DNA of 32,000 bases. It comes from Halogeometricum borinquense DSM 11551 (GTDB lineage: Archaea > Halobacteriota > Halobacteria > Halobacteriales > Haloferacaceae). Of the stretch, positions 431-32,000 are shown piece by piece. The notes beneath the pieces are model-generated. The model saw only the letters and a program-made list of their open reading frames with translations. It had not been told where the DNA came from and ran no database searches. The first letter of the stretch is position 1. The number at the start of each line of letters is the position of its first letter. Location of the stretch: contig NC_014735.1 of the NCBI RefSeq assembly GCF_000172995.2, forward strand, positions 240,001 through 272,000. Reading direction: 5' to 3'. The position numbers and the translations under genes are program-made.

Positions 431-1618
431 ATGGCCAAAGGTCTAGACGTCGGTACCATGAACATCCTCTCGTCCACGCCGGACGAGACGGGGACGAAGT
501 TCGTACAACAGCGGAATTCGTTCGTCGAAATCGAGTACAGCGACATGGCTGAACAGATGCTGTCGCGCAGTGACGTTTTGCACATCCGCAAGGACGACAA
601 AGTCTACGTCGTCGGCGACGATGCGCTCAACTTCGCGAACATCTTCAACAAAGAGACGCGGCGGCCCATGGAGCAGGGAATCCTTTCGAGCGAGGAGGCC
701 TCTGCAATCCCGATGATCAAGCTCATCACCGAACAGGTGGTCGGGACGGCGAACCAGCCCGGCGAAAAGCTGTTCTTCTCGTCACCGGCGGATCCTATCG
801 ACTCGGACGTCTCTACACTGTACCATCAGAAAACGCTCGAATCTATGCTCTCGGAGATGGGATTCGATCCGGAACCGATCAACGAGGGGATGGCAGTAAT
901 CTACAGTGAACTGGCTGATAACAACTTCACTGGACTCGGTGTCTCCTTCGGTGCCGGGATGACGAACATCTGCCTTTCGTACTACGCCGTCCCCGTAATG
1001 AAGTTCTCCATCGCCCGCGGGGGCGACTGGATCGACAAGCAGGCGGCGCAGGCGACGGGCACGCCGGTTGACAAAGTTACCTCGATCAAAGAAGACGATT
1101 TCGTCCTCGACTTCCGAACGGATGTCGGCGGAATTGAAGGTGCGCTCTCCATCTACTACGAGAATCTTCTCGATTATGTCGTCGAGAATATCGCAGCGCA
1201 GGTGGACGAAGGAGACGTTGAGGAAGAACTCGACGTCCCCGTCGTCGTTACCGGCGGGACGTCCCGCCCCGATGGCTTCGAGGAACTGTTCGCAAAGCAC
1301 CTCGAAGATGTCGAGATCCCCTTCTCGATAAGCGACGTTCAGAGCGTCGATGACCCACTGTACAGTGTCGCACGTGGTGCGCTCGTCGCGGCTCGCTCCG
1401 AAGAAGGATCTGACGAGCCAGCGGCACAATCGACGTCGTCTTCTGGCACGCGTTCGTCGTCCGGCAAGCGTTCGTCTGCCAGCAAACGTTCGTCGTCTAC
1501 GAGCACGAGTACGTCATCTAGCAGTACGTCGTCTACGAGTACGCCGTCTACTAATTCATCGTCTGCCGATAACAGCACGTCTACCAGCGAGAGTGCATCG
1601 TCCGGCGGCGAGGACTAA
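431..1618 (+). CDS. Actin-fold ATPase; haloarchaeal actin homolog (volactin/salactin-like) with a C-terminal Ser/Thr-rich tail
   Basis: 395 aa. Phosphate-1 motif GLDVGTMN (res 4-11), phosphate-2-like [10 protein letters not shown] (res 170-179) and adenosine motif VVVTGGTS (res 271-278) occur in the order and spacing of actin/ParM/MreB-fold proteins. A TATA-like cagtataatc lies about 30 nt upstream of the ATG. The core is acidic. Residues ~334-391 are almost only S/T with a few K/R. Confidence 0.8.
1445..1498 (+). repeat. Three tandem 18-nt units inside the actin-homolog tail, encoding [G/S][T/K]RSS[S/A] x3
   Basis: ggcacgcgttcgtcgtcc / ggcaagcgttcgtctgcc / agcaaacgttcgtcgtct encode [19 protein letters not shown] degenerate (ACG/AGC/TCG)n Ser/Thr tract follows, up to ~1603. 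Confidence 0.7.
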
Positions 1619-1687
1619 CTCTCGTCAGCTACCGCCCTCACTGCGGTTTTCGCGTGGGTTCGAGGAGAAGCGCCGATTCGGTATGAA

Positions 1688-2053
1688 TCACTGACCGTCA
1701 CGTTCTTCGATCGAATTCGTGTCGCCTTCGGATATCGCTGATGTCATCTCGGAACGGCCGGCTGGCAGCGCTTTCGTCCGCGGTATCATCGCTATCGGTT
1801 CGTTCCGTTTGACTGGCTCCGACGGCGTGCGTTCTGTTTCGTTGACCTCTTCGGTTCTTGCTGGGGAAGCGCCCGCGTCGATATGGCGGTTTTTGAACCG
1901 TCGAATCGCATCGTCCCACGTCTCACGGGGTGTATCTGACGGTTCGTACTCGGATTCTACGTCGGCGTAGCGACATCGTTTACAATACACGGCCTCGCCT
2001 CCTCCTTGAATCACGATTGTGGAGAGCGAGTTCTCACAGCGCGGACAGTCCAT
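1688..2053 (-). CDS. Small zinc-ribbon protein with a disordered acidic tail
   Basis: 121 aa. The N-terminus MDCPRCENSLSTIVIQGGGEAVYCKRCRYADVE carries CxxC-x17-CxxC. The rest is low-complexity and acidic. It is convergent with the actin homolog and divergent from the Bat-type regulator. Confidence 0.6.
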   Translation of the reverse strand: MDCPRCENSLSTIVIQGGGEAVYCKRCRYADVESEYEPSDTPRETWDDAIRRFKNRHIDAGASPARTEEVNETERTPSEPVKRNEPIAMIPRTKALPAGRSEMTSAISEGDTNSIEERDGQ

Positions 2054-2186
2054 GTGGTTGGCTTCGATTGCTCGCTAATTTAAACTAACCACTCGAAGAG
2101 CAAGACAGCGCCGTCCGTGGTCGTAAAACAAACCCAATAGTATAATGTCAGGGGAAGGTCAACTGTGACTTGCGACACGCGGTAAT

Positions 2187-4280
2187 TTGACGTTTCGTAG
2201 GGGCCGGTACGAAGAGCGACGCAACGCGGGTGACAACGTGCAAAATACACAGTCAGCGCACGAACGTGAAGCGACCTATTTAGCCGATGGAATCGTGGAG
2301 ATAGATGACAATCTCGTTATCGTCGATGCCGACGAAAAAGCGCGCGCACGGTTGGAAGCGTCGGGGATACCGTTCGGGGGACTGCCGGTGTCCGATGTTT
2401 TCGACTTCTCTACCGCTGTCGTTACAGCACTCAAAGATGGGGACAGGCGTGACATCTACGGCGACGAATTCAACACCTCGATACGATACAGCAAACGCGA
2501 GAACCTTCCGGTTACGGTGACCATTCTACCGGGAACGGAACGCTCGTATCTCCGCCTCGCTATCAGGGATAGAACCGAACGGCACGAACTCCAACAGCGA
2601 CTCTCCGGGTTGTACAATCTGGCTCGCGAGTTACTTCGAGAGCGGGACGATGACCGACTAGCCGAGTTAGCGCTTGATGCAATCGTCGGCGACTCGAATG
2701 CGCTGTCCGGTCGGATTTATCTGGCTGACTGGGACGAAACAGAGCGTCGTTCGGAAGTCACACTTCGGGCCGCGGCGACGGTTGGCGACGAGCAGCCGTA
2801 TCCGGACCCAATTGAACGGGGAGAGAGCGTCATCTGGGAGGTACTCAAACTCGGCCAACAGCGATATCGTTCGTTGTCGGCAGATGTGAGTTCCGAACCG
2901 GATGCAGCAGAACTATTCGTTCCGATTGGACGCTACGGCGTCCTCGTCCTTCGATCCTCGTCCGAACAGATCACCTTCGAACAACACGAACATGCGACGT
3001 CGATTGTCGCTTCACTCACCGCCGCACTCGAAACAGCGGGACACGAACGTCAGTTGAGAGAGCAGCAGGCGGTGTTGGAGCGCCAGAAACGGAAGCTGTT
3101 GACGGTCGCCAGACTCAACGAACTGCTCCGGGAGGTCAATCGCTCGATTATCGGGGCAGATCGAATTGATGAGTTACTCCAATGCGTCGTTGAGCAACTT
3201 TCGGATACGGAGACGTACTACGCGTCGGCGTTTGCGAGATACGACCCGGTAAGTGAAACGCTCAGTTACGTCACCTCATCGGGTGCGCTTTCGTTCACTG
3301 ACGACGAAATCGCGCTTGCAGACGAGACGCCGCTTTCTGATCTCGGTCAACGGGCTCTCGACCGTCAGTCCGCTGTCGTTGCACAAAACGCCGTATCCGT
3401 CGAAGAGTGGAAGCGTATCGAAACGACTGACACGGCTGCGGTCGAAAGCGTTGCCGCGCTTCCGGTCGTCCATCACAATCTCGTGTATGGCGTTTGTTAC
3501 TTGTTCGCTGAAACTGATTCGTTCACCGAGCGAGAGCTTTCGGTGCTGAACGAACTCAGCTCGATGCTCGGGTACGCCGTTATCTCCCGACTCCGACGCG
3601 ATCTCAACCAGTCCGGAGAATGTATCCAACTGAAGGTTCGCGTCAACGACGATACCCATCCACTTGTCGAAGTCTCTCGTTTCGACGAGACGGATATCGT
3701 TGTCGATCACATCGAATTCGATCACGCGAACGGTATCCAAGTGTACTTCGATACCGCAGGTGAGCGGGCAGAGCGGTTCCTTGATGAACTCGGAGAGCAC
3801 GACGCTGTCGCCGGTTCGGAAGTCGTCACGAACCGCCGTGACGGTGCATTGGTGAATCTCGTCCTCACCGACGACCTGTTGACGGCGCTCATCTCCTTGG
3901 ACTTGCATATCGCATCGGTAAAAGCGGACGAACAGGGCGTCATCGTTACCCTCACTGTCCCGCAAAACGTCTCGCCACGAGGCATTCTCACAGCGTTAGA
4001 AGAACAGTTCAGCGACGTATCGCTCGTGTCCCGTGGGCGCACACCGATCAACGGGGGGACTGTCGGCCGAATGCGATCGTTCGTTCGAGAGGCACTGACT
4101 GACCGCCAATACGAGGTTCTTCGGTGTGCCTTCGACAACGGGTACTACGACTGGCCACGTAACAAATCTGCAAAAGATGTGGCCGAGATGCTCGATATTA
4201 GTCAGCCGACGTTCAGCCAGCATCTCAGAGCGGCCGAGCAAAAATTACTCGACCAGTTGTTCACCCCCGATGAACTCTGA
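2187..4280 (+). CDS. Bat-type transcription regulator (PAS-like, GAF, GAF, HTH_10)
   Basis: 697 aa. The C-terminal HTH_10 signature is LTDRQYEVLRCAFDNGYYDWPRNKSAKDVAEMLDISQPTFSQHLRAAEQKL. The upstream regions look like GAF domains, and the N-terminus looks PAS-like (GIVEIDDNLVIVDADEKA). There is no in-frame ATG near the 5' end, so the start is TTG 2187 or GTG 2238. A TATA-like aatagtataatg lies ~45 nt upstream of 2187. Confidence 0.85.
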   Translation: MTFRRGRYEERRNAGDNVQNTQSAHEREATYLADGIVEIDDNLVIVDADEKARARLEASGIPFGGLPVSDVFDFSTAVVTALKDGDRRDIYGDEFNTSIRYSKRENLPVTVTILPGTERSYLRLAIRDRTERHELQQRLSGLYNLARELLRERDDDRLAELALDAIVGDSNALSGRIYLADWDETERRSEVTLRAAATVGDEQPYPDPIERGESVIWEVLKLGQQRYRSLSADVSSEPDAAELFVPIGRYGVLVLRSSSEQITFEQHEHATSIVASLTAALETAGHERQLREQQAVLERQKRKLLTVARLNELLREVNRSIIGADRIDELLQCVVEQLSDTETYYASAFARYDPVSETLSYVTSSGALSFTDDEIALADETPLSDLGQRALDRQSAVVAQNAVSVEEWKRIETTDTAAVESVAALPVVHHNLVYGVCYLFAETDSFTERELSVLNELSSMLGYAVISRLRRDLNQSGECIQLKVRVNDDTHPLVEVSRFDETDIVVDHIEFDHANGIQVYFDTAGERAERFLDELGEHDAVAGSEVVTNRRDGALVNLVLTDDLLTALISLDLHIASVKADEQGVIVTLTVPQNVSPRGILTALEEQFSDVSLVSRGRTPINGGTVGRMRSFVREALTDRQYEVLRCAFDNGYYDWPRNKSAKDVAEMLDISQPTFSQHLRAAEQKLLDQLFTPDEL

Positions 4281-4332
4281 TACCGTCCGCCCCCGACCGG
4301 TTTGATCAGAGTTCGACTGTCTTCTTCAGTTG

Positions 4333-4650
4333 TTACGCGTCGGTCCCAACGACGCGAATCATTCCGATGGCATCAACCGTCACGCGTACACCGTCGTACG
4401 TGAAGGTTAGTTCTCCGCGGTTGATTTTTGGTTGCTGCGGTCCCTCCCCACCGAAAAGCGAGTTGAGAGCGCTCCGATTGATTCGATCTGAGAGTGGTGG
4501 GAGATCGTTTTTGTCGCATGCTTTTAGTTCACTCACTGCTTCAATAACGGCTTCGCTGACAGGTTCGGGGGTTTCGAAGTCGTGCCAATGGATGAGACGT
4601 TCTTTCGTCCTACCTTTGGTCTCATGCACGCTTCGGTGCCTGGTTGCCAT
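4333..4650 (-). CDS. Stand-alone HalOD1 (halobacterial output domain 1) protein, at the position ddfA occupies next to sph3 in Haloferax
   Basis: 105 aa. EPVSEAVIEAVSELKACDKNDLPPLSDRINRSALNSLF...ELTFTYDGVRVTVDAIGMIRV matches the HalOD1 pattern as I remember it (secondary-site peptide, PPL..xIdxdALd.LF, then f.y.g..VtV). It has its own 234-nt AT-rich upstream spacer. Confidence 0.7.
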   Translation of the reverse strand: MATRHRSVHETKGRTKERLIHWHDFETPEPVSEAVIEAVSELKACDKNDLPPLSDRINRSALNSLFGGEGPQQPKINRGELTFTYDGVRVTVDAIGMIRVVGTDA

Positions 4651-4884
4651 GTCAGTAAAAGATGCACTTGGCCTAATAATATTATCTACTTATAGTACAT
4701 GTCTACCAATTGATTGTTGACGAAGTTCTTCCGATCCTTCTTTCCTGATTTTAGCTATAATCCGTGAGTCTCCTCCTCTCGTGACGGATCTGCATCAAGT
4801 TTATTGTTAACACATCTGGGGAAATCTCCGATACACACCACTGTCAGACATAGAATATAATTGGGTGAAAAATATCCCCGCTGG

Positions 4885-6813
4885 TTACCACTCGACGTAT
4901 TGGTGCTGTTCGTCGAGTGCTTCTGCGTCTTCGGGGAGTAAGGCGACGACCAGATAGTCCGGGAACTGCGAGAAGTATTCCACCAGTTCCGAGATACGTT
5001 CGGAGTCGATTGCTTCGACTGAATCGAGAAGCATGAACGGAACGGTGTCGTGGACTTCGTGGACGAGATACCCCGCGAGCGCGAAGACGAGGCCGATTAC
5101 CTCCCTTTCACTCTCGCTCAGGTTATCTATCGTATCCTCGTACACTGCACCCGATTCGTTCGTCCGGACGATGTGTAGCTCGAACGCCGACTGGGAGTTT
5201 CGGTTGGACTTCCCGGAGCCGATGTTTTTACGTTCGATCCACACTCGATCGATGTTCTCGTAATCGAGCAAGTTTAAGACCGTCTCCATCTCCTCGTTGA
5301 ACGCCTCGATCGCGTTCGTCTCGATCGATTCGATGCGAGATCGGGTCTCCGCTAATTGCTCTTTGACTTGCTCTCTGCGCTGTTTCAGTTCTTCACGACG
5401 TTCGAGTTCATCCTGTTTTTCCGCTAACTCGGCCGTGATGTCCTCTAGTTCGTCGCGTTTTTGGTCCAGTTTGAACTCGTATTCGTTTCGCTGTTTGTGA
5501 CGTTCGATCAGTTCCGTCTGCGTCTGGTCTCGAAGTTCGTCGGCCTCTGACTCCAACGATTCGACCTGTTCTTGTAACTCGTCGCGTTCGTCTTGTAGTT
5601 CCTCGACCGTCGCCGTCCGCTCTTCAATCTCGTCTTCTAACCTCGAAAGTCGGTTCGTTAATTCCTCTTGGCGGCGCTCCTGTTCGTTTACTTCTCGGAG
5701 TTCCGAGTCTAACTCTTCGAGGCGATTCCGGAGTTCCTCGCGTCGCTCGCGGTGTTCGTCGCGAAGTGATCGGAGGCGGTCGGTCGTCTCTTCGACCTGC
5801 GACTGTTCGACGTTGGTACCGCAGGTCCAACACGTGATCGTCGAATCGACGAGTTGGTCGGTGACCGACCCAGCAGCATCTTCGTCTAAGGCGTCTGCGA
5901 CGACGTCGCTTTTGCCGGCCAGTACGTCACTGTTGTACTCGATGATGGTTTGCAGATCCGTGATCGTCCGATTCAACTCGTCTATCCGCCCACGCGTCTG
6001 CTCGATTTGAGATTCGATTTGTTTCGTCTCGTAGTCCGTCTCTGAGAGCGCGTCGAGTTCGTCCGAGGTTTCCGTTCGTTCGTCTCGAAGCGATTCGATG
6101 CTTTCGCGTTCGGACTCGAGTCTGAACCGGACGGATTTGAGATCCGAACGAGCGGACTGGAGCTTTTCGAGGATTTCATCAAGTTCCGCTTTGTTCTCCG
6201 TCTGTTCGCTGAGCGACCGGTCCTCAGCCTCGATTTCTGCGGTCAGTTCGTCCCGTTTGTCCGCTAACTCTTCGATCGTCTCTTTGATCGAGTTCCGTCG
6301 CTGCTCCAGAGTGTGTATCTCGTCTTCGACCGACGAAAGCTGCTTGATCTCGCTGTCGATTTGATCGCGCTCCGATTTGAGAGACTGAATCTCTGATTCG
6401 ATGGCGACCGTGTCCACCGGCCGCATCAGAATCTCTCGGAGGTCCGCTCCAGCGACGACGGCACGGCGCGCTTCGTTAGACCCGAGCAAGAATGCAAACA
6501 GGTCGGCGATAGTCGAGTCTTCGAGGTACGGGTCTCCGTCGAACGTGACCGTACCCCTTTTTTGAGTGAGCGACCGCGTATAGCTCTCGCCGTCGATTTT
6601 GAGTTCGACGTGACCGCTGTCTGCATCGCTCTTCAGACTAACGTCGTCGCTTCCGAGTCCCGCGGCAATACTTCTGAGAAACGAGGTCCGGTTCGTCGCG
6701 TTCCGCCCGGTTAGCACCGTAATTCCCTGTTGGAACTGAACGTCCGCATCCTCGATTCCCCCAATGTTCTCTACATCCACCTGTGCCGTTGTGTCACGTT
6801 GAGTTTCTGCCAT
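4885..6813 (-). CDS. sph3: Archaea-specific SMC-related coiled-coil protein (Sph family) with a central CxxC hook
   Basis: 642 aa. The N-terminal head is VENIGGIEDADVQFQQGITVLTGRNATNRTSFL. Residues ~130-500 form a long E/R/L/Q-rich heptad-like region. CWTC sits at residues 328-331, the midpoint. The C-terminal head carries LSESERE and FMLLDSVEAID. The sph3 symbol rests only on adjacency to the RdfA-like gene. Confidence 0.8.
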   Translation of the reverse strand: MAETQRDTTAQVDVENIGGIEDADVQFQQGITVLTGRNATNRTSFLRSIAAGLGSDDVSLKSDADSGHVELKIDGESYTRSLTQKRGTVTFDGDPYLEDSTIADLFAFLLGSNEARRAVVAGADLREILMRPVDTVAIESEIQSLKSERDQIDSEIKQLSSVEDEIHTLEQRRNSIKETIEELADKRDELTAEIEAEDRSLSEQTENKAELDEILEKLQSARSDLKSVRFRLESERESIESLRDERTETSDELDALSETDYETKQIESQIEQTRGRIDELNRTITDLQTIIEYNSDVLAGKSDVVADALDEDAAGSVTDQLVDSTITCWTCGTNVEQSQVEETTDRLRSLRDEHRERREELRNRLEELDSELREVNEQERRQEELTNRLSRLEDEIEERTATVEELQDERDELQEQVESLESEADELRDQTQTELIERHKQRNEYEFKLDQKRDELEDITAELAEKQDELERREELKQRREQVKEQLAETRSRIESIETNAIEAFNEEMETVLNLLDYENIDRVWIERKNIGSGKSNRNSQSAFELHIVRTNESGAVYEDTIDNLSESEREVIGLVFALAGYLVHEVHDTVPFMLLDSVEAIDSERISELVEYFSQFPDYLVVALLPEDAEALDEQHQYVEW

Positions 6814-6864
6814 GTGATCACCTAGCTGAGTTGTCTACCGCTTGCTGCGGGCGAATGACCGGAA

Positions 6865-7485
6865 TCATTCGCACCGACATCCCCCTTCGACGAACTCGTC
6901 GGGTGTAAGTCGGACATCGCAATCTGTACAGACGATTCGCACGTCCACCGAGACCTCCGGCGACCCCACCGTCACATCCTCGTTGGCTGCGACCCGGTCT
7001 ACGGCGTCCTCAGTCACTGACCGAAGACGATTTGAGATCTTCTTTACCGTCCTGAACCCGTCTCCGTTCGTCGATGAACCGTCGTCTTCTCGTTCGACGT
7101 TCCGATGGCGCTTTAGATAGTTATACACCGATTGGTACGAAATAAAATCCGCCTCGAGACGCTCGGTGTCGATGTTTTTCGAGGCGAGTGTGTTGCGCGC
7201 ATCGGTCTGGTTCCCCGCGGTTACGTCGTCGCTGGTCAGTAACCGATAGAAGTTTTCTGCCTCTCCATCGACCGGGTGTTCGCCGGCTTGACGTAGTGCG
7301 GCCTCGATAATTCGCACGTTAACGTCATCTGCGAGCGTGCGAAGACTCTCCTGTTCCCCCTGATCCCCCCGCCACCGTTCGACGAGCTCGTCACCGAGTC
7401 CGGTAATACTGTACCGCTCGGCGACTCGCTCGATCTTGGGACCTTTCCCTCCCCGCCGAGACGGGGACGTAGAAGATTTACCCAT
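6865..7485 (-). CDS. rdfA: RdfA-like protein (rod-determining factor A family)
   Basis: 206 aa from ATG 7485. The ORF-track start at 7548 is a TTG and adds 21 unlikely residues. KIERVAERYSITGLGDELVERW...SLRTLADDVNVRIIEAAL...DGEAENFYRLLTSDDV matches my recollection of RdfA proteins. The C-terminus is CTDC-x13-CRC. Its stop is 51 nt upstream of the Sph start on the same strand. Confidence 0.65.
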   Translation of the reverse strand: MGKSSTSPSRRGGKGPKIERVAERYSITGLGDELVERWRGDQGEQESLRTLADDVNVRIIEAALRQAGEHPVDGEAENFYRLLTSDDVTAGNQTDARNTLASKNIDTERLEADFISYQSVYNYLKRHRNVEREDDGSSTNGDGFRTVKKISNRLRSVTEDAVDRVAANEDVTVGSPEVSVDVRIVCTDCDVRLTPDEFVEGGCRCE

Positions 7486-7868
7486 ATTTTGTCCACCTAT
7501 AAATATTAGATCACCGTATTTAATAATTACTGCATTTGAGTCTGTCAATGGATGATCATGATTGCATTCTCAAACGAGTAATATTCCCAAATTTCGGAGA
7601 GTAAACCGATTATTCGAACGAATCGATGATGGTATGTCATCCGAGGACTACAATGAAAGTAGTTGGAATCCAATTCTCAGATTTTGATATACCTGTCTAG
7701 TTGTGTACTCTCGCATCACTGCTGTTGGAGTATCCGTCGTACAAAGAACGGGTCGGTACCGGAGCAGTGGCATGGGTATGCGCCAACGAAATCTGCATAA
7801 ACTGAAATCGAAGCAAACGGCGGACTGCGTCCGTCTTCTACTGGTCCGCTGGCGTCCCGCTACTGAGG

Positions 7869-8492
7869 TTAGCGTTGCTCGCTACCGCTGTTTGCCTCTT
7901 TCAGTAGCTTGTTCAACTGCTTGCGTTCTTGCGACTTGACACGTGCTTGGGTCACGACATCGTCGAACAGTGATTCGATAGTCGCAACAGTACTCGGTGC
8001 GTGACGAGATGGGTCGCACGTGAACAGGCCGAAGTGGCCGCCCACGCGAACGCGCTCAGTTATCAGTTGTAGAAAGCTGAATACGGCTTCTTCGTCAGTC
8101 GTTTCGATCAGGTCGGAGACCGATTCGAACACGACGCGAACGGTTGCGCCGTCGAGTGTCTCGAACGCGCCGACCATTCCGATACCGATATCGGTGAGGT
8201 CGGCCGCGACGTGGACGCTATGGAATGGGTGTGATGCAGGCATCTGCTCGTCGTCGGTCGTAATCAGACAGATCGGCTCGGCCTTCGCCAGTTCCTGGTA
8301 CTTCGACGTACGCTCCCAGTTCCCGTGGGTATCGACGACGACGATGCCATCATCACGGTCGTGTTCTAACCCGAGTGCTGTCATCAGCAGTTGCTCTTCG
8401 TGGGCAGGATCGAACTCGTCGTACAGCAGGAGATTTACGCCCGTACACTCGCCGGGACTGGAACCACTGTCTGAATCGCGTGACGATGTCAT
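7869..8492 (-). CDS. Hypothetical protein, possibly a degenerate RecA/KaiC-like fold without a P-loop
   Basis: 207 aa from ATG 8492. That ATG overlaps the TGA of the upstream response-regulator reading frame (ATGA). The protein is acidic with alternating beta/alpha-like segments (GVNLLLYDEF, GIVVVDTHG, VRVVFESVSDLIE, HFGLFTCDP). No GxxxxGK[ST] is present. The upstream 134 codons of the 341-aa track ORF overlap the real REC-HalX frames and are rejected. Confidence 0.6.
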   Translation of the reverse strand: MTSSRDSDSGSSPGECTGVNLLLYDEFDPAHEEQLLMTALGLEHDRDDGIVVVDTHGNWERTSKYQELAKAEPICLITTDDEQMPASHPFHSVHVAADLTDIGIGMVGAFETLDGATVRVVFESVSDLIETTDEEAVFSFLQLITERVRVGGHFGLFTCDPSRHAPSTVATIESLFDDVVTQARVKSQERKQLNKLLKEANSGSEQR

Positions 8493-9078
8493 TGCTCCGT
8501 CTCCGAGATAGATTCTTCGATGTCCCGGATCTGTGAGATAAACTCGTGATCGTCTGCAAGCCGTTCTCTTTCCGCGTCGAGCGACGACTTTCGCTCTTCG
8601 ATAGCCGCCTGCAACTGACTGTAAGCGAGACTCTGTTTCAGTTCCGCCTCCGACTTCGATTCCCGGAGAACCGCTGCTTTGTTCTGTAGCGCGTAGAGGC
8701 TCCGTATCTCGGCCGCAAATTCGCTGCGGGAGAGCAATTGCTGCACGAGGTCTCTGAGTTCCTGTCGTTTGATCGGCTTCGTTAGGTATGCGTCGAATCC
8801 CATCTTGAGTATCTCCCACCGGGGTCCACCGCCGAAACGATTGCAACGTAACAGTCGATATCGCGCTCGTGAATTCGTTCGAGGACTTCGTCACCTGACA
8901 CTCCTGGCATCCGACGATCGAGGAGAATCACGTCAATCGCGTCGTGAACAGCATCGAGCGCTTCTCGCCCACCCATCGCTAACTCTACTCGGTAGTCAGC
9001 AGAAAGCCAGTGTTCGTACGTCTTGGCGACTTGTAAGTCGTCCTCGACGATCAGCACTCGATGCCGGTTATCACTCAT
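8489..9078 (-). pseudogene. REC-HalX response regulator interrupted by a 1-nt deletion (or an assembly error) near 8819-8824
   Basis: Frame A (9078->) reads MSDNRHRVLIVEDD...ILLDRRMPGVSGDEVLERI...CYVAIVSAVDP and then runs into nonsense and a stop. The frame shifted by one nt continues as WEILKMGFDAYLTKPIKRQELRDLV, followed by a coiled-coil HalX-like segment ending at 8489. The total span is 590 nt (3n+2), consistent with one missing base in the run CCCCGG. Confidence 0.75.
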
Positions 9079-10444: not shown

Positions 10445-11815
10445 CTACGCGGCTTTCGGGAGTGTAACCGAAAAGACGGCTCCTTCCGGCTCGTTGTCTT
10501 CGACTTCGATACTCCCACCGTAGCCTTCGACGAGCGTTTGGACGAGGTAGAGACCGATACCGGTTCCCTCGCTGTCGAGTCCTTTCTCGCCCTTTCCGAA
10601 GATTTTCTCCTTTTGGTTGTCGGGAATCCCCGGTCCGTTGTCCGCGACTCGGACGATGATCTCGTCGTCGCGTTCGTCGATAGTAACAGTAATCTCCGGC
10701 ACTTGCTTGTCGTTGTGCAGGACAGCGTTCTTTAGCAGGTTGCGGAAAACCGACGGAAGCATATCGTCGGCCGACACCGTTACGTCCGGAACCGGTTCAT
10801 CGACCGTGACAACCGCGTCCGAATTCGCCGCACGGATATCTTCGACCTCACTCAGTAGACTCTCTTGAAGCTCCTCTGTACCGGTCTCGCTCACGTCTGC
10901 GAACAGGACTTCCGAAATCTCTCGGGCCGTTCGGGTGAGTTCGACAGCGTGTTCGGCACGCTTCTGAATCGTCTCGACGTACGCTTTGTCTTCCTCGTCG
11001 AGTTGTTCGGCGATTAAATCGGCGTAGCCGGAAACCATCTGGAGGTCGTTGCGGATGTCGTGACGAAGAACTTGATTGAGAATATCGAGTGTATCGCGCT
11101 GTGATTCAAGCTGTTGCTCGTACTCTTTTCGCTCCGTAATCTCCCGCGAGTAAACGGACAGTCCGTCGTCGTCGGCGAACATACGGATTTCGACCCAATA
11201 GCCGAACGGCTCTGGAAGATACTGTTCTGTTTCCGCCGGCTCTCCGGTTTCCATCACGCGACGGAATTGTGCTTTGAGTTCCGTCGGGATGCGCTCCTCG
11301 TAGACATCCCAGATGTTCTCTCCGACGATTTCACCGGGTTCGATGTCGGTCCGCTCTGCAATTCGTTCGTTCCAGAACGTCACGTTCCAGTCGGAATCGA
11401 CCGTGAAGACGGAATCGGTCGTCCGTTCCAGAAACTGGTACTGCCCCGAGAGGTCGATTGCGGCGCACATCGCCCCTTCGAGCTTGTCGTCAGTGTCGTA
11501 GATCGGCTCTGCGGCTATTCTGTAGCGGTTCTGTCTCGATGAGTGGATTGATGTGAACTCCCGTTCGACGTGTGATTCTGTCTCTATTGCTTCCCGCTTG
11601 GCCTCCATTACCGGTCCAGAAACAGCGTCCGTGAACAGTTCTGCATCCGTTTTCCCGATTATTTCTTCTTTAGACACCCCGAGTGTCGGTTTGGCGACCC
11701 ACGTGTGTCGCAGTTCGGTGTCAACGAACGACCCGTTCATCCGACCAGTTTCGAGTACTAACTCCAAGAAGCGCTCTGTCCTCTGGAGTTCCCGGCGTAA
11801 CGCATTCTCTGTCAT
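10445..11815 (-). CDS. Sensor histidine kinase (PAS, PAS, H-box, HATPase_c)
   Basis: 456 aa. It has two PAS-like modules (..DITERKEYEQQL at the end of the second), the H-box LNQVLRHDIRNDLQMVSGY, the N-box FRNLLKNAVLHN, and G-boxes DNGPGIP and GTGIGLYLV. Confidence 0.9.
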   Translation of the reverse strand: MTENALRRELQRTERFLELVLETGRMNGSFVDTELRHTWVAKPTLGVSKEEIIGKTDAELFTDAVSGPVMEAKREAIETESHVEREFTSIHSSRQNRYRIAAEPIYDTDDKLEGAMCAAIDLSGQYQFLERTTDSVFTVDSDWNVTFWNERIAERTDIEPGEIVGENIWDVYEERIPTELKAQFRRVMETGEPAETEQYLPEPFGYWVEIRMFADDDGLSVYSREITERKEYEQQLESQRDTLDILNQVLRHDIRNDLQMVSGYADLIAEQLDEEDKAYVETIQKRAEHAVELTRTAREISEVLFADVSETGTEELQESLLSEVEDIRAANSDAVVTVDEPVPDVTVSADDMLPSVFRNLLKNAVLHNDKQVPEITVTIDERDDEIIVRVADNGPGIPDNQKEKIFGKGEKGLDSEGTGIGLYLVQTLVEGYGGSIEVEDNEPEGAVFSVTLPKAA

Positions 11816-25072: not shown

Positions 25073-28000
25073 TTACGCACCTGTCTCGAACTCGAAGCGT
25101 GTACCTCCCTCCGAACTGGCCGTTAGTGAGATGGACCACCCGTGCGCGTTCGCAATGTCGGCTACGATTGCTAATCCGAACCCGGTCCCGCCTTGATTGG
25201 TGGTGTATCCGTACTCGAATACGTCCTCGCGTTTTTCCGGTGGTATCCCTGTGCCGTTGTCTTCGACGTAGAAACCGTCCGTACGGTCCAGTTTACCGAC
25301 GTTCACGGTTACATCTTCGCCGCCGTGTTCGACCGCGTTTCTGAACAGGTTCTCGAACAGTTCGGTAAGGAGGTTACACTCACCGTACACCAACGGTGTT
25401 TCATCAGCGATCTGGAGATTTGCATCCCCTGTCTCGACGTACGTCCATCCCTCGCGGGCGATCTCATTCAGTGGACACTCCGTCCCGTCTCCGATGTTGT
25501 CTCTTGCTTTTGAGAGTACCAAGAGATCCTCGATGAGTCCCTCCATCCGGTTGAGTGCCGAGTTGATTTTCTCGAAGTACTCTTTTTCACCCTTCTCTTC
25601 GGCCAGTTCTATGTACCCTCGTGCAACACTGAGCGGATTCCGGAGGTCGTGTGACACGATGCTGGCGAACTTTTCGAGTCGGTCGTTCTGTTTCTGTAGT
25701 TCGCGCTCGCGGTCGCGGAGGAGTTTACTCCGCTCTATCCGAGTCAACGCTCCGGTCAGCGCCTCACCGAGCAGCGTCACTAACGTCTGATCGACTGCGC
25801 TGAACGCGTCGGGAGAAAGTGATGAGACGATGACTACTCCGTGTTCCTCTAACGGATGTACGATTGCGCTCCGAACTGGTGTGTGGTCTGCGAGTGTACT
25901 CTGTTCGTTGATATCGTCGATCGTGCGTTGGTCACCCGTCTCGAAGACATCCCAGACGAGGCTCGACACGGGATCTCCTTCCGCTTCTCTGTCGTACGTT
26001 GACGGAGTGAAGTGTTCCGACCCCGTTGCGTCCGTGAACGCCGTTTGACGAAGTTCGCTACCCGTTTGCAGATGTATCCCGCAGAATTCCACATCGAGGA
26101 TGTCCGTGGCTGCTTCGACGCCCAACTCTGCCGCTTCGTCCGTACCTGAGGCGTCGATTAGGCGGCTGGTGTACTGCTGAAGGCGCTCCAGTTTACGTTT
26201 GTACTCTTCGGCACTCGTGACATCGGTCGAGATGCTGGCTATCTGTTTCACCACTCCGTCATCGTTCGTTATCGGGTGAGCCCGAGATCGGACCCACCGA
26301 ACTCCCCGCTCGGGATGCTGAATTCGGAATTCTTGATGCTGGGGCCACTCCGCTTCTGTCGTTTGTTGTGCCTCGATGTCGGACCGAACCGCTTCGATGT
26401 CGTCCGGGTGAATCCGCTCTAGCCACGCTTTGGGGTCTTGACGGAGTTGCTGTTCGGTGACGCCATACATCTCCTCGGTAGCTGAGTTCATAAATGAGAC
26501 TTCCGAGTAGTCGGGAGGCACGAGGAAGAAAGCGTGATCGACGTTTTCGGCGAATGTCCGGAACTGTTGGTGTGCTTGGCGGAGCGTTCGTTCTTGCTCT
26601 TTCAGTGTGGTGATGTCCTGAAGTACGCCACGAAGCACTGTCTCTCCGGATCGTTCTTTCTCGACGAGTTCGCACCAGGCCCGAACGTCGCGGACTTCCC
26701 CGTCTGCCCGAGTGATTCGCGTCTCGATGCTGTTCGTTTCCTGTCCTTCGAGTGCTTGATTGAAGAACGACGCAATCTGCTCTCTATCGTCTGGATGACA
26801 GAATTCGATCACGTCCTCGAGTGTCGGCTCGTACTCCAGGTCGATACCGTGAATACGATAGATTCCATCGGACCATCGCAGTTCCTCCGACTTGGGACAG
26901 TATTCCCAGATTCCGATTTCGGCGATCTCCTGGACGCGGTCGAACAGAAACTCCTGTCGTTGGAGTTCGGACTCACGCTTTTTCTGCTCGGTGATGTCAC
27001 GATACAACCAGATGTTGCCCCTCCCTTCTGGAAGTTGGTACGACACGTAGCTTCGTTCGACTGTCCGTCCGTCTGCAAGCGCTAATTCCTCGTTCAGTAC
27101 GGTCTCTTGATCTGCAAGAATCTCTTCGAGGCGGGTTATGAAGCCCTCCGGATCAGCAAACTGCTGTTTCAGATCCTCGGCGACGGCTTCGCAGTTCTGT
27201 CCAACGAGGTCATCGGGTGATCCAGAGAGGTCGATAATATCGTGCAGTGCCTCGTTGGCGGCGATTATCTCTCTCGTCTCGTCTTCGACTAACACGCCGA
27301 CCGGGAGGTTAGCAAGCAGTTCCGAGAGAATCGTGTTCGTCTCGGTGAGTCGTTCTTCCCATCGTTTTCGCTCCGTGATGTCGAGCGAGTAGCCCAGAAC
27401 GCCGAGGATTTCCCCATCCGGGTCGCCCCGCGGAACTTTCGAGGTGAGGAACCATCGATCTAACTCCTCGTTGTATTCCTCTCGATTCAGGATTGGGTTC
27501 TCCCTGTTCGATCACTCGTAAGCTCTCGGCGTGAGTGCGCTTGGAGAACTCCTCTGAAGCCCCGGCATCGGCTTCGACATCGGTTTTGCCGATGTACTGG
27601 TCGGGGTCGTCCACGAGGCCGCGACTCATCCACTGGTGACGACCCTCGCGGTCTTTGATGAACAGATGGATCGGGACGTACTCGAAAATCGTATCGAGGA
27701 GTTGCTTTTGCTCCGTCAGGGTTGCTTCCCGTTCGGCCCGTCCCATCGCCGCCTTGACGGTCGCCCCGAGAATTTTGAACAAACCGATCTGCCTCTCTGC
27801 GAACGTCTGCTCGGCCGTCGTCGCGGCCAGGAGAATTCCGTACTCGCCGAGGGGAACCACTATCTCACTGTGTATCTCGGTCCCGTGAGCGTACGACTCG
27901 TCCACGCTGGACACATCGGAACAATACTGCACTTCCCCGGATTCGAACGCTTCCCACGCGAGGCTCTCTCCGGGAGGTATCCGCGGAAGGGTGTCGAACT

Positions 28001-29354
28001 GTTCTTGTGCCGCCGCAGTTTCGGTTTCGGGAACGAGTTCGTTTTCACGTTCGTCGTACGTCCAAACGCCAGTAATCTCGAACTCGAGTATGTCTGCAAC
28101 CGCTTCGACCCCGATTTCTCCGACTTCAGCGGGCGACGAGGCGACGTTGAGGCGCCGTGCTGTCCGTTGAAGCGCCCAGAGTTGATGCTCCAACTGTTTC
28201 TGCTCGGTCACGTCTCGCGCAACCACGAGTACCTGTGGTTCCCCGTCCGCCTGAAGTGGTGTGAGTCGCGTGTCGAAACACCGCCGTTCCAGTGGAGTCC
28301 CCAGTTCGAAGTGAAGGTCACAGTCGTAGGGGGTAGCGCTGCTGTCGTCTTCTTCCGCCGCATGAAGTACTTCTTCAAATGCCTGATTGAACTCCCGTAT
28401 GTCAGAGCGAGAGACCGCGTCTCCGACGATATCTTTCAGTTGTTCTCCTTCTAGTTGATCCGGGCCTGTTCGGTCGAACGCCTGGGCCGCGGCGGCGTTT
28501 GCGAATTGGATTGTTGACGTTTCATCGAGGACGAACACCGCATCGTGGATGTTCTTGAGGACGGTTTCGTTTCGCTCTAACTCCTGTTTCCGTTCTCGTT
28601 CGTCCGTAATCTCATGAGAGAATACTGTGAGTCCGTTTTCGTCCGGAAACGCGCGCACCTGAACCCAGTAGTCGAGTGGTCCGCCGATATGCTGCTCGAA
28701 CGTGACTGGGGATCCGGTCTCTATGGCAGTTCGGTATTTTTCTTCCAGTTCAGTCCCCACGGTGAACGGAAACTCTTCCCAGAGATTCGCGCCGATAACC
28801 GCTTCGGGGTCACGGCCGACGCGCTCTGCCATCTGCTCGTTCATATACTCGATACGCCACTCTGTATCGACGGCGTAGATTGCGTCAGTCGTCCGCTCTA
28901 GTGTCCGTTGGACGTGGTTCTCTAATTGGCTCGCACGCTTCCGGTCCCGTGCCGCCTCCACGAACGTACGAATACGATTGATAAGGAGATTACAATCATC
29001 TACGTCCGAGCGAATTGGGATGTAATCCGTTACGTCCGCTTGTGTCGCCGCCGTCGCAACGTTCTCGTTTCCTTGCTCGGTGAGCAGAATTACTGGGAGT
29101 TCGTCGTCTTCGGCCCGTATCGATTCGATGAGATCGATTCCGGTTCGGTCTGGGAGTTCGTAGGCGGTGACGACGCAGTCGATGGGATGTGAGGATAGTA
29201 TCTCAAGCGCCTCCCCAACGCACTCGGCAGTAACGCAATTGATCTCTGAGTTGGTGGTCTCGATATCTTCACAGACCAAATCAGTGAACGCATAGCTGTC
29301 GTTCACATAGAGCACCTTGATAGGTGTCTCTAACTCAGTGTCCCAACTGCTCAC
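25073..29354 (-). pseudogene. Very large hybrid sensor (REC, PAS, PAS, GAF, PAS x3-4, GAF, HisKA, HATPase_c) split by a +1 nt frameshift near 27490-27511
   Basis: The upstream ORF (29354-27309) starts with a receiver domain (IKVLYVNDSYAF...VVTAYELPDRTGIDLI). It reads sensibly up to ...HAESLRVIEQGEP and then turns into Arg/Gly-rich nonsense. The frame of the downstream ORF is open from 27511 and continues the same PAS domain as (P)ILNREEYNEELDRWFLTSKVPRGDPDGEILGVLGYSLDITERKRWEE. It then runs through LVEDETREIIAAN to the H-box FASIVSHDLRNPLSVARGY and G-boxes DNGTGIP and GTGFGLAIV. The span is 4282 nt (3n+1). Confidence 0.8.
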
Positions 29355-29632
29355 AATACGGATATAATATGTGACTGTATAGATAAGCGTTTTTGCCGCA
29401 TTTCAGGCGCTGATACTCTCGTTTAACTGGCTAGAGAATCATTCAAGAATGGCAGAAATATCCGTGAATTTACTTTTTATTTGGTCGATGATTTTGATCC
29501 CATATGTCGGTGGCCTGAATTACTACCAACGAACTATCGCTCGCCATTTAATAAATCTAATTTCCGAATTTCCGCACGTGCGAGTGATGGCGATCACTAC
29601 CTGTTATTCCCATACTATATTCTGTTGACAAA

Positions 29633-29824
29633 ATGGCCACAAACGCAATCGATGTGGATGGGTTACTAGGAGTCATTGACCAGTACCCCGAATTCCAACA
29701 GTTCAAGCCTGGATCGGACGTTCTGGCCCATCAGTCTTGGTTTACTGTTCTCGTCTTGATGGTCTGGACCGTCGTCGCGCCCGCCGTGGGGTATCTGAAG
29801 TTCCGAACCATGGAGATTGTGTAG
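29633..29824 (+). CDS. Possible small membrane protein (63 aa) or a remnant of a permease C-terminus
   Basis: The ATG is preceded by a TATA-like ccatactatatt ~20-30 nt upstream. There is one clear hydrophobic helix, WFTVLVLMVWTVVAPAVGYL, followed by KFRTMEIV. No family was recognised. Confidence 0.3.
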   Translation: MATNAIDVDGLLGVIDQYPEFQQFKPGSDVLAHQSWFTVLVLMVWTVVAPAVGYLKFRTMEIV

Positions 29825-29849
29825 CCTCCGTTGCTCGGTCGCCGGAGGC
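29824..29849 (+). other. Stem-loop (7-bp GC-rich stem, 12-nt loop) overlapping the stop codon of the 63-aa ORF
   Basis: gcctccg (29824-29830) pairs perfectly with cggaggc (29843-29849). No oligo-T follows, so a terminator role is uncertain. Confidence 0.3.
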
Positions 29850-29910
29850 AGTTGAAATCCCGACGGAACAACAAAAATTGATATTTTCAAGCCTGCAAGC
29901 GGGCTAAAAC

Positions 29911-29947
29911 GGGGTCCTGAGGGGCGTGGTCGTGGGGTGCCCTGGGG
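29911..29947 (+). other. G-quadruplex-type motif, four GGGG runs
   Basis: GGGGtcctgaGGGGcgtggtcgtGGGGtgccctGGGG has loops of 6, 9 and 6 nt. It is in non-coding DNA ~130 nt beyond the stop of the minus-strand Bat-type gene. Confidence 0.4.
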
Positions 29948-30075
29948 CAAGTGTGTAACGCTAGCTGTTGTCACACTACCCATATGGACAATGGTTCTGA
30001 TCTCTTGTTAATTTTTCGTCATGAACGGTGCCGGTACGGTCGAGAGGATCGCCGGCGGTGTGCGAATCGCTCGTG

Positions 30076-32000
30076 CTATTCCGTTCGAGGCGACGGTGGT
30101 TGTGTCGGTAACACGGGTGACAACAGGTGATCGAACACCTTTTGCTCGGCTTTTCGAAGGTGTTGGTGGAACGTCGGCGGCGAGACACCTAACGATTCGG
30201 CCACGCCCTCGCCCGTCGTCTCCCGAGGCCACTGGAAGAACCCAGCGTGATAGGCGGCTTCAAGCGCCGTTCGCTGCCGCTCGGTCAGTTGGTTACGCAA
30301 GACGCGCTGGATTCGATTCGTCGTGTTATCCCGCCGGGTCACCTGTCGGTGTTTGAGCAACTGCGCCATCGGATACGTTTCCTCGATCGTTTTGGTTATC
30401 TGTCGAATGTCCGCCGTCGGTGCGACATGAACGGTGATGTTGTAGTCGCCGTCTTCGATGACAGCTTGCTTGATTGAACCGCCAGCCGAAGCGACCACCG
30501 AGAGAACAGGGGGATTTGAGAGTTGAGCCTCGAAATCCGTCTTCTTTCCTTCATCGTGGAATGAGACAGATTCCCAGTACGGGAGTTGTTCGACGATACT
30601 CCGAACGTTGTCGATTGCGTCCCCCGTCGCGCTCCCGTACAGCAGATATCTCTCGTCTTCGATAGGCATCATGTGGTCGAACGAGATTCGCCCGTTCTGG
30701 TTTGATTCGGCATTTAACGCCTCGAAGACATCAGGTATCTGAAATGCAATTTCGATCACGTCATCGCTCATGAGTGCCCGCTTTCGTTCCGTTGCGGCGA
30801 TGGCGTGGCCGATGATTTCACCGAGTTGTTCGACGACCGCCCGTTCTTCGCCTTCGAACGCATTGAGACGCTTACTGTAGACGTTCAAGACTCCGTATAT
30901 CGCGTCTTCGTGGATGATCGGAATTGCGGCAGACGAGCGGAACTCGTGCGCTTCGATGTGCTCACGCCACGGGTCGTGGCTGGGATCTTGGTCGATATTC
31001 TGCGTTGTCTGTATTTCTCCGGTTTTGAATGCTCTCCCCGTGGGACCGTTGCTCCGCTCGTCGTTTGGGTCCACGGAGATGACAATATCGTCCAGATAGC
31101 CTTTGGTTCCAGCTTTGGTTCGGACGTTGACTCTCTTCGAGGTCGTGTCCACGTCGCCGACCCATGCGAACGAGTACGAATCCGATTTGGCGAGGAACTC
31201 ACAGACGGTTTCCTCGATCTCTTCGCGGGTTGATTGGTTGATGACCACATCTGTCGTCTCCCGGACGACTTCGTTGAGGCTGTTCAACGCCGCTAATCGC
31301 TCGCGCTGACGCACGAGTTCTCGTTCGTCCGCGTGACGAGCAATCGCCGAGGCGAGGATGTTGGCGACCGACTGGACGAAGTTGACGTCGTGCGTGGAGA
31401 ACGATTTCGCCGCTGTATCGTGTGTTCCGAGGATACCCCACGGATCGTCACTCGGGCCAACGATGGTGCTGATACCGCTTCGAACGTCGTGCTCTCTGAG
31501 CAGGTCCGGCCCGCTGAATCTCGTTTCTGTCTCTAAGTCTGATACCACGACTGGCTGGTCGGTTCGCAGTGTGTGGGCCGCTTGGGAGTCGTCTGCGACG
31601 GCGGACACAGTCGCGGAGCCGACGATTCCGTCGTGCCACCCCACTCCTTGTCGAAGCAGTAGTTCGTCCGCATCGGCGTCGAGGTCGAGAATTTTACAGT
31701 AGTCGTTGCCGAGGGTGTTGGCGACCTGTCTTGTGGCTTCGGTCAGCAACGTATCGATATCCCGAACTTCGAGCGCTTGCCGACCGAGTTTCGTGATTGA
31801 CTTTTGCTGACGTATCCGTCGCTGTAGTTTCTGTTCGCGTTCGAGGCGGTCGGAGACGTCGCGGACGACACCACACCGCCCGTAGCTTCCTTCCAATGGG
31901 AACAGCGCGAACCGGCTCTCACACGGAACTTTCTCCCCGGATTTTGTCCTGATGTCAAGTTCGATCCTCGCTGACTCTCGGTCTGTATCGATGACCGTTT
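30076..32000 (-). CDS. Bat-type transcription regulator (PAS, GAF, GAF, HTH_10), 5' end beyond the right edge
   Basis: The C-terminal HTH_10 is LTERQRTALEAAYHAGFFQWPRETTGEGVAESLGVSPPTFHQHLRKAEQKVF. There are two GAF-like regions. The frame stays open upstream of the track start (a TTG at 31896) to base 32000, reading ..TVIDTDRESARIELDIRTKSGEKVPCESRFALFPLEGSYG, which is the end of a PAS domain. Confidence 0.85.
   Translation of the reverse strand, partial: TVIDTDRESARIELDIRTKSGEKVPCESRFALFPLEGSYGRCGVVRDVSDRLEREQKLQRRIRQQKSITKLGRQALEVRDIDTLLTEATRQVANTLGNDYCKILDLDADADELLLRQGVGWHDGIVGSATVSAVADDSQAAHTLRTDQPVVVSDLETETRFSGPDLLREHDVRSGISTIVGPSDDPWGILGTHDTAAKSFSTHDVNFVQSVANILASAIARHADERELVRQRERLAALNSLNEVVRETTDVVINQSTREEIEETVCEFLAKSDSYSFAWVGDVDTTSKRVNVRTKAGTKGYLDDIVISVDPNDERSNGPTGRAFKTGEIQTTQNIDQDPSHDPWREHIEAHEFRSSAAIPIIHEDAIYGVLNVYSKRLNAFEGEERAVVEQLGEIIGHAIAATERKRALMSDDVIEIAFQIPDVFEALNAESNQNGRISFDHMMPIEDERYLLYGSATGDAIDNVRSIVEQLPYWESVSFHDEGKKTDFEAQLSNPPVLSVVASAGGSIKQAVIEDGDYNITVHVAPTADIRQITKTIEETYPMAQLLKHRQVTRRDNTTNRIQRVLRNQLTERQRTALEAAYHAGFFQWPRETTGEGVAESLGVSPPTFHQHLRKAEQKVFDHLLSPVLPTQPPSPRTE

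Follow-up and report, generated by a model that had tools for sequence, protein, structure and literature searches.

Comparative analysis of a 32-kb stretch of the haloarchaeon Halogeometricum borinquense DSM 11551 (contig NC_014735.1, positions 240,001 to 272,000; hereafter, the window) revealed a locus in which the gene of the actin homologue volactin (volA) and the rdfA, sph3 and ddfA genes, all of which determine cell shape in Haloferax volcanii, are encoded together with a set of signalling genes. In our judgement, this locus probably represents two known cell-shape modules that have been joined: module A, comprising a CdpA-like membrane protein, volactin and a zinc (Zn)-ribbon protein, and module B, comprising the Group 1 rdfA-sph3-ddfA trio along with a Bat-type transcription regulator, a response regulator of the REC-HalX type and an inactive KaiC-like protein (iKaiC), with the signalling genes serving as an input to the trio and the adjacency of the two modules being incidental. 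The genes of module A are orthologues of HVO_2016, HVO_2015 and HVO_2014, the trio of module B corresponds to HVO_2174-2176, and every component belongs to a described family.

Genetic studies in H. volcanii have established that RdfA and Sph3 are needed for rods, DdfA for disks, and volactin for a timely transition to disks. To our knowledge, phenotypes are known for these four proteins and biochemical connections between them are not. The known regulators, QarABC, CsmR and CirA, are encoded elsewhere in H. volcanii.

The original prediction, made from the sequence alone, had taken the 206-aa, 642-aa and 105-aa proteins (aa, amino acids) for an RdfA-like, an SMC-like and a HalOD1 protein, and these are indeed Group 1 orthologues of RdfA, Sph3 and DdfA. 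RdfA was 60% identical to HVO_2174 (P0127) versus 38% to the pHV3 paralogue, Group 1 being defined by more than 55% identity to HVO_2174 (Schiller 2024), and Sph3, with 56% identity and 615 bits to HVO_2175, stood just above the 55% line. Furthermore, Sph3 shares with its H. volcanii counterpart a degenerate Walker A (GRNATNRTS), an LSESERE signature and a central CWTC motif, located at residues 328-331 in the window protein and 329-332 in H. volcanii. The window DdfA scored 68 bits, at 44% identity, against H. volcanii DdfA (HVO_2176) versus 13-37 bits against unrelated HalOD1 proteins, its match to the NCBIfam equivalog model being marginal (Table 1). The rdfA and sph3 genes are arranged serially (R-S) with a gap of 51 nucleotides (nt; 6814-6864), a spacing that Schiller 2024 gives as well (Supplementary Table 2: "Hbor_31810/Hbor_31800, serial-R-S, +51, Group 1"), and the rdfA-sph3 orthologue pair of H. 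borinquense is thus already on record. A paralogous RdfA-Sph pair was ruled out by the identities of 60% and 56% to HVO_2174 and HVO_2175, as opposed to 38% to the pHV3 copy, and by the Group 1 listing.

The trio locus of H. volcanii (HVO_2174-2176; Schiller 2024) resembles that of the window in its three genes, their order and their strand, including the position of ddfA after sph3, as well as in the short gap between rdfA and sph3 and the longer one before ddfA. Unlike the H. volcanii locus, the window trio is flanked by the REC-HalX, iKaiC and Bat-type genes, whereas in Haloferax one flank holds DUF1616, DUF58 and MoxR genes and the opposite one ThiS and MoaD genes; moreover, ddfA has an ordinary ATG start in the window, unlike in the Haloferax trio locus. 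In the protein database searched, the closest RdfA outside the species was that of Haloferax. The confident AlphaFold2 model of the window RdfA (predicted local distance difference test score, pLDDT, 82) consists of a helical N terminus and a C-terminal Cys4 ribbon, and Foldseek found no significant neighbour for it in the PDB (best E-value 0.21; template modelling score, TM, ~0.2). Regarding the wider family, RdfA-family genes were present on 133 haloarchaeal plasmid records of PLSDB, several with more than one copy, all annotated as "rod-determining factor RdfA" although just ~36-42% identical to the Group 1 protein; in Haloquadratum-type contigs (L094-L100), RdfA homologues of 46-49% identity had no SMC-like partner within 10 kb.

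The evidence that ties the signalling genes to the trio comes from a second lineage, represented by the contigs L157 and L158, which were returned by a look-up of an RdfA with 56% identity. In these contigs, the Bat-type gene is divergent from a REC-HalX and DUF7504 (the family of iKaiC) gene pair in that order, followed by one small gene on the opposite strand and by rdfA, sph and ddfA (HalOD1). Between the window and L157, identities were 33% over 673 aa for the Bat-type regulator (310 bits; next best matches, 127 bits for the other Bat paralogue of the window and 166 bits for a plasmid protein), 49% for the intact REC-HalX (182 bits; next best 152), 42% for DUF7504 (92 bits; at most 55 for all others), 56% for RdfA, 53% for Sph and 48% for DdfA, each of the six L157 proteins being the best available homologue of its window counterpart. 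The two regions have no other gene in common, the Bat-type gene lies at opposite ends, the guanine-cytosine (GC) content is 56% versus 67%, and L157 is about as distant from H. borinquense as either is from Haloferax. Since these six genes were kept together through rearrangement at such a distance, we argue for a functional link. Consequently, the claim that sensory genes flank the trio was sustained, inasmuch as the Bat-type, REC-HalX and DUF7504 genes all recur beside it in L157 and so are not random neighbours. A PAS kinase gene near the locus (10445-11815) was not conserved in L157. In a third, metagenomic lineage (L159), a PAS-GAF-HTH_10 regulator directly follows ddfA; right after that regulator lies a second stand-alone HalOD1 gene (L159 6684-7016, minus strand).

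It might be proposed instead that these neighbours are incidental, the trio having landed in a signalling-rich, lower-GC and possibly megaplasmid region where volactin and the local regulators have no action on it. The window does contain at least seven signal-transduction genes, its GC content of ~56% compares with 60% for the H. borinquense genome, the locus-tag number (Hbor_318xx) may suggest a secondary replicon, the Haloferax trio has no adjacent regulator, and Bat-type and REC-HalX genes are multi-copy in haloarchaea. However, we regard this as unlikely, given that in L157 all three regulators again lie next to the trio, each of them the best homologue, despite different surroundings and order, and that the REC-HalX and DUF7504 pair is a recurrent operon, with DUF7504 recurrently tied to HalOD1, the domain of DdfA.

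With respect to the individual regulators, the Bat-type protein had been predicted to be a PAS-GAF-GAF-HTH_10 regulator. One GAF (GAF_2, 47.5 bits), a BAT (70.1 bits) and an HTH_10 domain (79.2 bits) were recognised by Pfam in the order GAF-BAT-HTH_10, whereas the PAS and the second GAF were unconfirmed, residues 1-330 giving no Pfam match to either even at E<=10; for residues 18-141, NCBIfam gave a weak hit against the AtoS PAS region. Among plasmids, no close homologue of this regulator was found, the best being 29% identical.

The response regulator had been predicted to be a REC-HalX protein whose stop overlaps the start of a KaiC-like gene. The ATGA overlap is present, but REC-HalX is not one open reading frame (ORF) in the window, where REC (9078-8782, 98-aa ORF) and HalX (8803-8489, 104-aa ORF) lie in different reading frames as a result of a 1-nt deletion. 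In an alignment with two other H. borinquense assemblies (L001 and L084), one base was absent at about 8818-8820, the window reading CCCCGG-TGGG versus CCCCGGGTGGG and CCCCGGATGGG, and in both of these strains the gene is intact and encodes a 196-aa protein. The frameshift, after residue 87, leaves the conserved Lys (YLTKP) cut off from the Asp pocket, and reflects either a strain-specific loss of REC-HalX input or a homopolymer sequencing error; the H. borinquense genome was sequenced partly by 454. On a plasmid of Haladaptatus sp. DYSN1 (L156 1587-2206), the REC-HalX gene upstream of a DUF7504 gene is frameshifted as well, at the phospho-acceptor Asp region, so that this was an independent event.

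The adjacent gene product had been read as a KaiC-like protein lacking a P-loop, which agrees with its membership of the DUF7504 family, with the KaiC links of its homologues and with the missing Walker A, no GxxxxGK[ST] motif being found in its sequence. Indeed, 10 of 52 DUF7504 homologues also matched the Pfam KaiC family (PF06745), and others matched DUF835, PAXNEB or MEDS. No sequence match was found in the PDB, the AlphaFold2 model was unusable (pLDDT 38), and a word-indexed sequence search returned the same-species copy only; outside the species, the closest homologue was the L157 gene occupying the same position. On plasmids, HalOD1-DUF7504 fusion proteins (L149, with the pNVE500 protein at 2437-3300, and L151), a gene pair with DUF7504 ahead of HalOD1 (L150) and operons of REC-HalX and DUF7504 in that order (L153 and L156) were detected. 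Galperin 2018 described a HalOD1-iKaiC architecture and a "divergent, possibly inactivated KaiC-superfamily domain" found with HalOD1, a description that the DUF7504 protein, judged by its sequence, fits. Between H. borinquense strains, the iKaiC protein differed by 6% (window 7869-8492 versus L084 8996-9619), RdfA being identical and Sph 99% identical, which suggests that the iKaiC gene may evolve faster than the adjacent rdfA and sph3.

In relation to the HalOD1-iKaiC and REC-HalX architectures surveyed by Galperin 2018, the DUF7504 protein of the window corresponds to iKaiC and its REC-HalX to the standard haloarchaeal response regulator; unlike in the HalOD1-iKaiC fusions, iKaiC and the HalOD1 protein DdfA are encoded by separate genes located 3.2 kb apart, with rdfA and sph3 between them. 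That census draws no connection of the HalOD1, iKaiC and REC-HalX families to cell shape. A further point of comparison is QarA (HVO_1357; Cote 2026), an H. volcanii repressor of rdfA/sph3 of REC-HalX-GAF-BAT-HTH_10 composition, whose deletion raises rdfA and sph3 expression. The window resembles the QarABC system (Cote 2026) in that REC, HalX, GAF, BAT and HTH_10 are linked to rdfA/sph3 control; unlike in QarABC, these domains are carried by two proteins encoded beside the target genes, and an iKaiC protein, which QarABC is without, is added. The REC-HalX and GAF-BAT-HTH_10 proteins are encoded by two genes 4.2 kb apart and no stand-alone REC occurs in the locus, so that the QarABC type, a one-chain regulator adjoining a kinase and a stand-alone REC, is not found at this locus. 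In view of the published HalOD1-iKaiC fusions and of the QarA domain set, it is plausible that these regulators form a dedicated input to the rod/disk switch.

In this context, the locus may operate as follows. Rods would be driven, as in H. volcanii, by RdfA together with the SMC-like Sph3, disks by the HalOD1 protein DdfA, and, by analogy with that species, volactin filaments would help the transition from rod to disk. A histidine kinase would phosphorylate REC-HalX, which would act via the translationally coupled iKaiC protein; the latter probably binds DdfA, because iKaiC family members occur fused or adjacent to HalOD1 domains. The Bat-type factor might add ligand-dependent transcriptional control of the trio, and, together with REC-HalX, it would supply as two proteins the domains that QarA carries in one chain. 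A bolder version of this scheme, which we consider unlikely, would take REC-HalX, iKaiC and the Bat-type factor for the ancestral dedicated input of the RdfA-Sph3-DdfA switch, with iKaiC binding DdfA directly, Haloferax QarA being a fused and relocated descendant of the REC-HalX/Bat pair, and the volactin unit having been drawn into the regulon via the control region shared by the Zn-ribbon and Bat-type genes.

As for module A, the actin-fold ATPase of the original prediction proved to be a true volactin, which matches the full Pfam model (residues 1-321 on positions 1-321 of 321), shares 84% identity with H. volcanii VolA (HVO_2015; P0047) and has the CdpA-like and Zn-ribbon neighbours of VolA; an actin of the ParM or salactin type was ruled out on the same three grounds. 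Its tail is unusual, about 70 Ser/Thr-rich residues (nt 1406-1618) replacing the usual short acidic one, and its length varies in frame among strains, giving proteins of 395, 399 and 400 aa. Directly before volA lies a gene (L001 8800-9699) whose product is a four-helix membrane protein of the CdpA-like kind (Pfam CdpA_N; HVO_2016 orthologue); it ends ~300 nt to the left of the window, and was found upstream of volA in both L001 and L084. The adjacency of HVO_2016 and HVO_2015 has been noted (Liao 2025).

The conservation of this unit was evaluated in the best 80 of 398 volA loci from other species, among which there was no sister species of H. borinquense. The CdpA-like gene adjoined volA in 51 of the 80 loci, in 49 of them directly upstream on the same strand. 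Using a hidden Markov model built from the first 62 residues of the Zn-ribbon protein and the homologues of this segment in the volA loci, we located the corresponding gene within ~3 kb of volA in 47 of the 80, placed convergently downstream as in the window in 38 loci, divergently upstream in 5, and otherwise in 4. In H. volcanii, a 166-aa gene convergent with volA holds the matching position; HVO_2014 has been described as a zinc finger domain protein. Therefore, the convergent Zn-ribbon protein reported in the original prediction is present as described, but it belongs to volactin, as the HVO_2014 orthologue, and not to the trio: the conserved partners of volactin are the CdpA-like membrane protein and the Zn-ribbon protein.

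In loci of the H. volcanii type, the order is pentapeptide protein, CdpA-like, volA, Zn-ribbon and CetZ, and the H. volcanii volactin region (hvo_2013-2020: CetZ5, HVO_2014, HVO_2015 and the CdpA-like HVO_2016) is similar to that of the window: in both, the CdpA-like gene is followed by volA and this by a Zn-ribbon gene convergent with it. Unlike it, the window has a Bat-type regulator and then the trio where Haloferax has CetZ, and a volactin tail of 70 Ser/Thr-rich residues in place of a short acidic one. In Haloferax (L165-L167 11120-12928), the gene divergent from the Zn-ribbon gene is a tubulin-like CetZ, and the Bat-type regulator holds that position in H. borinquense. In several Halorubrum species (L021, L031, L035, L037, L040 and L047; ~11320-11760), a short same-strand ORF that matches the BAT C-terminus and HTH_10 lies directly downstream of volA; in most cases there is no Zn-ribbon gene nearby.

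Regarding the juxtaposition of the two modules, the original prediction had seen in actin and trio one consolidated module, and had named an adjacency without conservation in relatives as grounds for abandoning that idea. This is what we found: the adjacency was seen solely in H. borinquense strains, and elsewhere at chance frequency. An RdfA/Sph pair was present within 10 kb of volA in 1 of the 80 other-species loci (L040, a Halorubrum), and this pair is taken to be a paralogue because of its identities of 31% and 42% and its opposite gene order (S-R). By chance, 2.25 RdfA genes per genome, a 20-kb span and a genome of ~3.7 Mb give an expectation of ~1.2% per genome, or about 1 in 80, which the observed frequency equals. 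Furthermore, neither volA nor the Zn-ribbon gene occurred in any of 63 metagenomic RdfA-family loci, and volA is absent from the 19 kb examined of L157, the other lineage in which the regulator set is complete. The divergent promoter region between the Zn-ribbon and Bat-type genes marks the limit of ground shared with Haloferax: to its left lies a block of genes common to H. borinquense and the volA regions of four Haloferax species, found upstream of the volA unit in the former and downstream of the Zn-ribbon gene in the latter four, and to the right of the Zn-ribbon gene nothing except the trio matches the Haloferax volA or rdfA flanks, the rest of the window (9-32 kb) having no synteny with either. 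Most simply, modules A and B stand side by side as a by-product of rearrangement rather than as a selected unit, and the presence of volactin in the cluster is no evidence of a functional unit.

Under the alternative put forward by the original prediction, the whole 9 kb, actin included, would be a single selected and co-regulated shape-switch module in which the Bat-type factor coordinates the expression of volactin (disk) and of rdfA-sph3 (rod). We find this improbable, the RdfA/Sph pair near volA being at chance expectation and a paralogue, volA being absent from all 63 RdfA loci and from the examined part of L157, and strains of one species being non-independent observations. Several features nevertheless speak for it: all four genetically defined Haloferax shape determinants, volA, rdfA, sph3 and ddfA, lie within 7 kb, the window and three H. 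borinquense genomes show one and the same arrangement, and the Bat-type gene is divergent from the Zn-ribbon gene, with a shared control region of 133 nt, and convergent with ddfA. Moreover, the species has been described as highly pleomorphic, with rods, squares, triangles and ovals, in H. volcanii both hvo_2013-2020 and hvo_2160-2176 have been named as shape regions, and the expression of HVO_2014 is altered in the qarA deletion strain.

Another view would make RdfA-Sph primarily a DNA- or replicon-organising system (an SMC/Rad50-like protein with an adaptor), with indirect effects on shape and an actin neighbour that reflects the maintenance of a secondary replicon. It draws on the 133 plasmid records with RdfA-family genes, the plasmid-type locus tags carried by most paralogue pairs in the table of Schiller 2024, the Rad50-like central CxxC motif and SMC head of Sph, and the role in DNA partitioning of the related actin salactin. 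We deem it very unlikely, however, as the pair is Group 1, whose H. volcanii members are chromosomal and have clean rod-less phenotypes with no growth defect, and as the actin is a volactin with conserved chromosomal neighbours, not ParM.

Returning to the reading that we favour, two joined modules with the signalling genes as trio input, several observations weigh against it. The full regulator set occurs in two independent lineages only, Haloferax (L082/L083 and L161/L162) and the L089 lineage keep the trio without these regulators, and neighbours of this kind are more to be expected by chance in a window so rich in signalling genes, which include two further kinases, a second Bat-type factor and a REC-PAS-GAF protein. 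Additionally, close relatives of H. borinquense are absent from the 80 volA loci, and the actin adjacency could extend to unsampled sister species. By analogy, the iKaiC-DdfA link would follow from domain co-occurrence in other family members, and the split-versus-fused relation to QarA from domain composition only. Lastly, the published CsmR operator TATCA-N4-TGATA was found as an exact match ~45-70 nt upstream of the rdfA genes of both H. volcanii (L083 9932-9945) and L157 (8636-8649), whereas the region upstream of the window rdfA (7486-7868) contained none even with 2 mismatches allowed, so regulation may differ there. A role of this operator at other window promoters was also unsupported, the 7 matches at up to 2 mismatches in the whole window being at chance level (5.4 expected).

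The original prediction had further held that the wiring of this locus was undescribed. This is true in part only: this gene cluster was not found in the literature searched, whereas HalOD1-iKaiC fusions (Galperin 2018) and the REC-HalX-GAF-BAT-HTH_10 regulator QarA (Cote 2026) have been published. In the same literature, we found no mention of the conserved association of Bat-type, REC-HalX and iKaiC genes with the Group 1 trio, of the volactin-trio juxtaposition in H. borinquense or of the extent of the CdpA-like/volA/Zn-ribbon linkage, no paper naming the Hbor_3176x-3181x genes, and none linking DUF7504/iKaiC to rdfA.

All nine ORFs read from the sequence by the original prediction are present where it had placed them, and the features of the locus are listed in Table 1. 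Window proteins were 94-100% identical to those of the two other H. borinquense assemblies, with identical gene order. Rfam and tRNA searches of the window found no RNA genes, and no near match of the window to any Halogeometricum record was found among PLSDB plasmids, where volactin occurred on just 4 records, none from Halogeometricum. A second signalling cluster (25073-31896, minus strand) encodes a PAS-GAF-HisKA kinase (740 aa), a REC-PAS-GAF protein (681 aa) and a GAF-GAF-BAT-HTH_10 regulator (606 aa), a composition reminiscent of QarABC.

Table 1. Features of the shape-gene locus of H. borinquense DSM 11551, with positions in the window.
Feature	Position	Strand	Support and remarks
volA: volactin orthologue, 395 aa	431-1618	+	Pfam Volactin PF25216, 436.5 bits, full length
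Zn-ribbon protein, 121 aa, HVO_2014 orthologue	1688-2053	-	N-terminal CxxC...CxxC; Pfam matches sub-threshold only
Divergent promoter region, Zn-ribbon gene / Bat-type regulator	2054-2186	.	133 nt; limit of ground common with Haloferax volA regions
Bat-type transcription regulator, 697 aa	2187-4280	+	GAF_2 (326-464), BAT (479-616), HTH_10 (637-688)
ddfA: DdfA orthologue, 105 aa	4333-4650	-	Pfam HalOD1; NCBIfam DdfA (NF053557) 73.3 bits, cutoff 70
sph3: SMC-like protein, 642 aa	4885-6813	-	NCBIfam archaea-specific SMC-related protein (ASRP, NF045487), 664 bits, cutoff 300
rdfA: RdfA orthologue, 206 aa, Group 1	6865-7485	-	Pfam RdfA 217.6 bits
iKaiC: inactive KaiC-like protein, 207 aa	7869-8492	-	Pfam DUF7504 97.7 bits; without Walker A
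REC-HalX response-regulator gene, disrupted	8489-9078	-	Pfam REC and HalX on two ORFs, different frames

In brief, the regulator set conserved in two lineages names candidate pairs, namely iKaiC and DdfA, REC-HalX and iKaiC, and the Bat-type factor at the trio promoters, and the locus is useful mainly for naming testable partners of DdfA and of the regulation of the trio.

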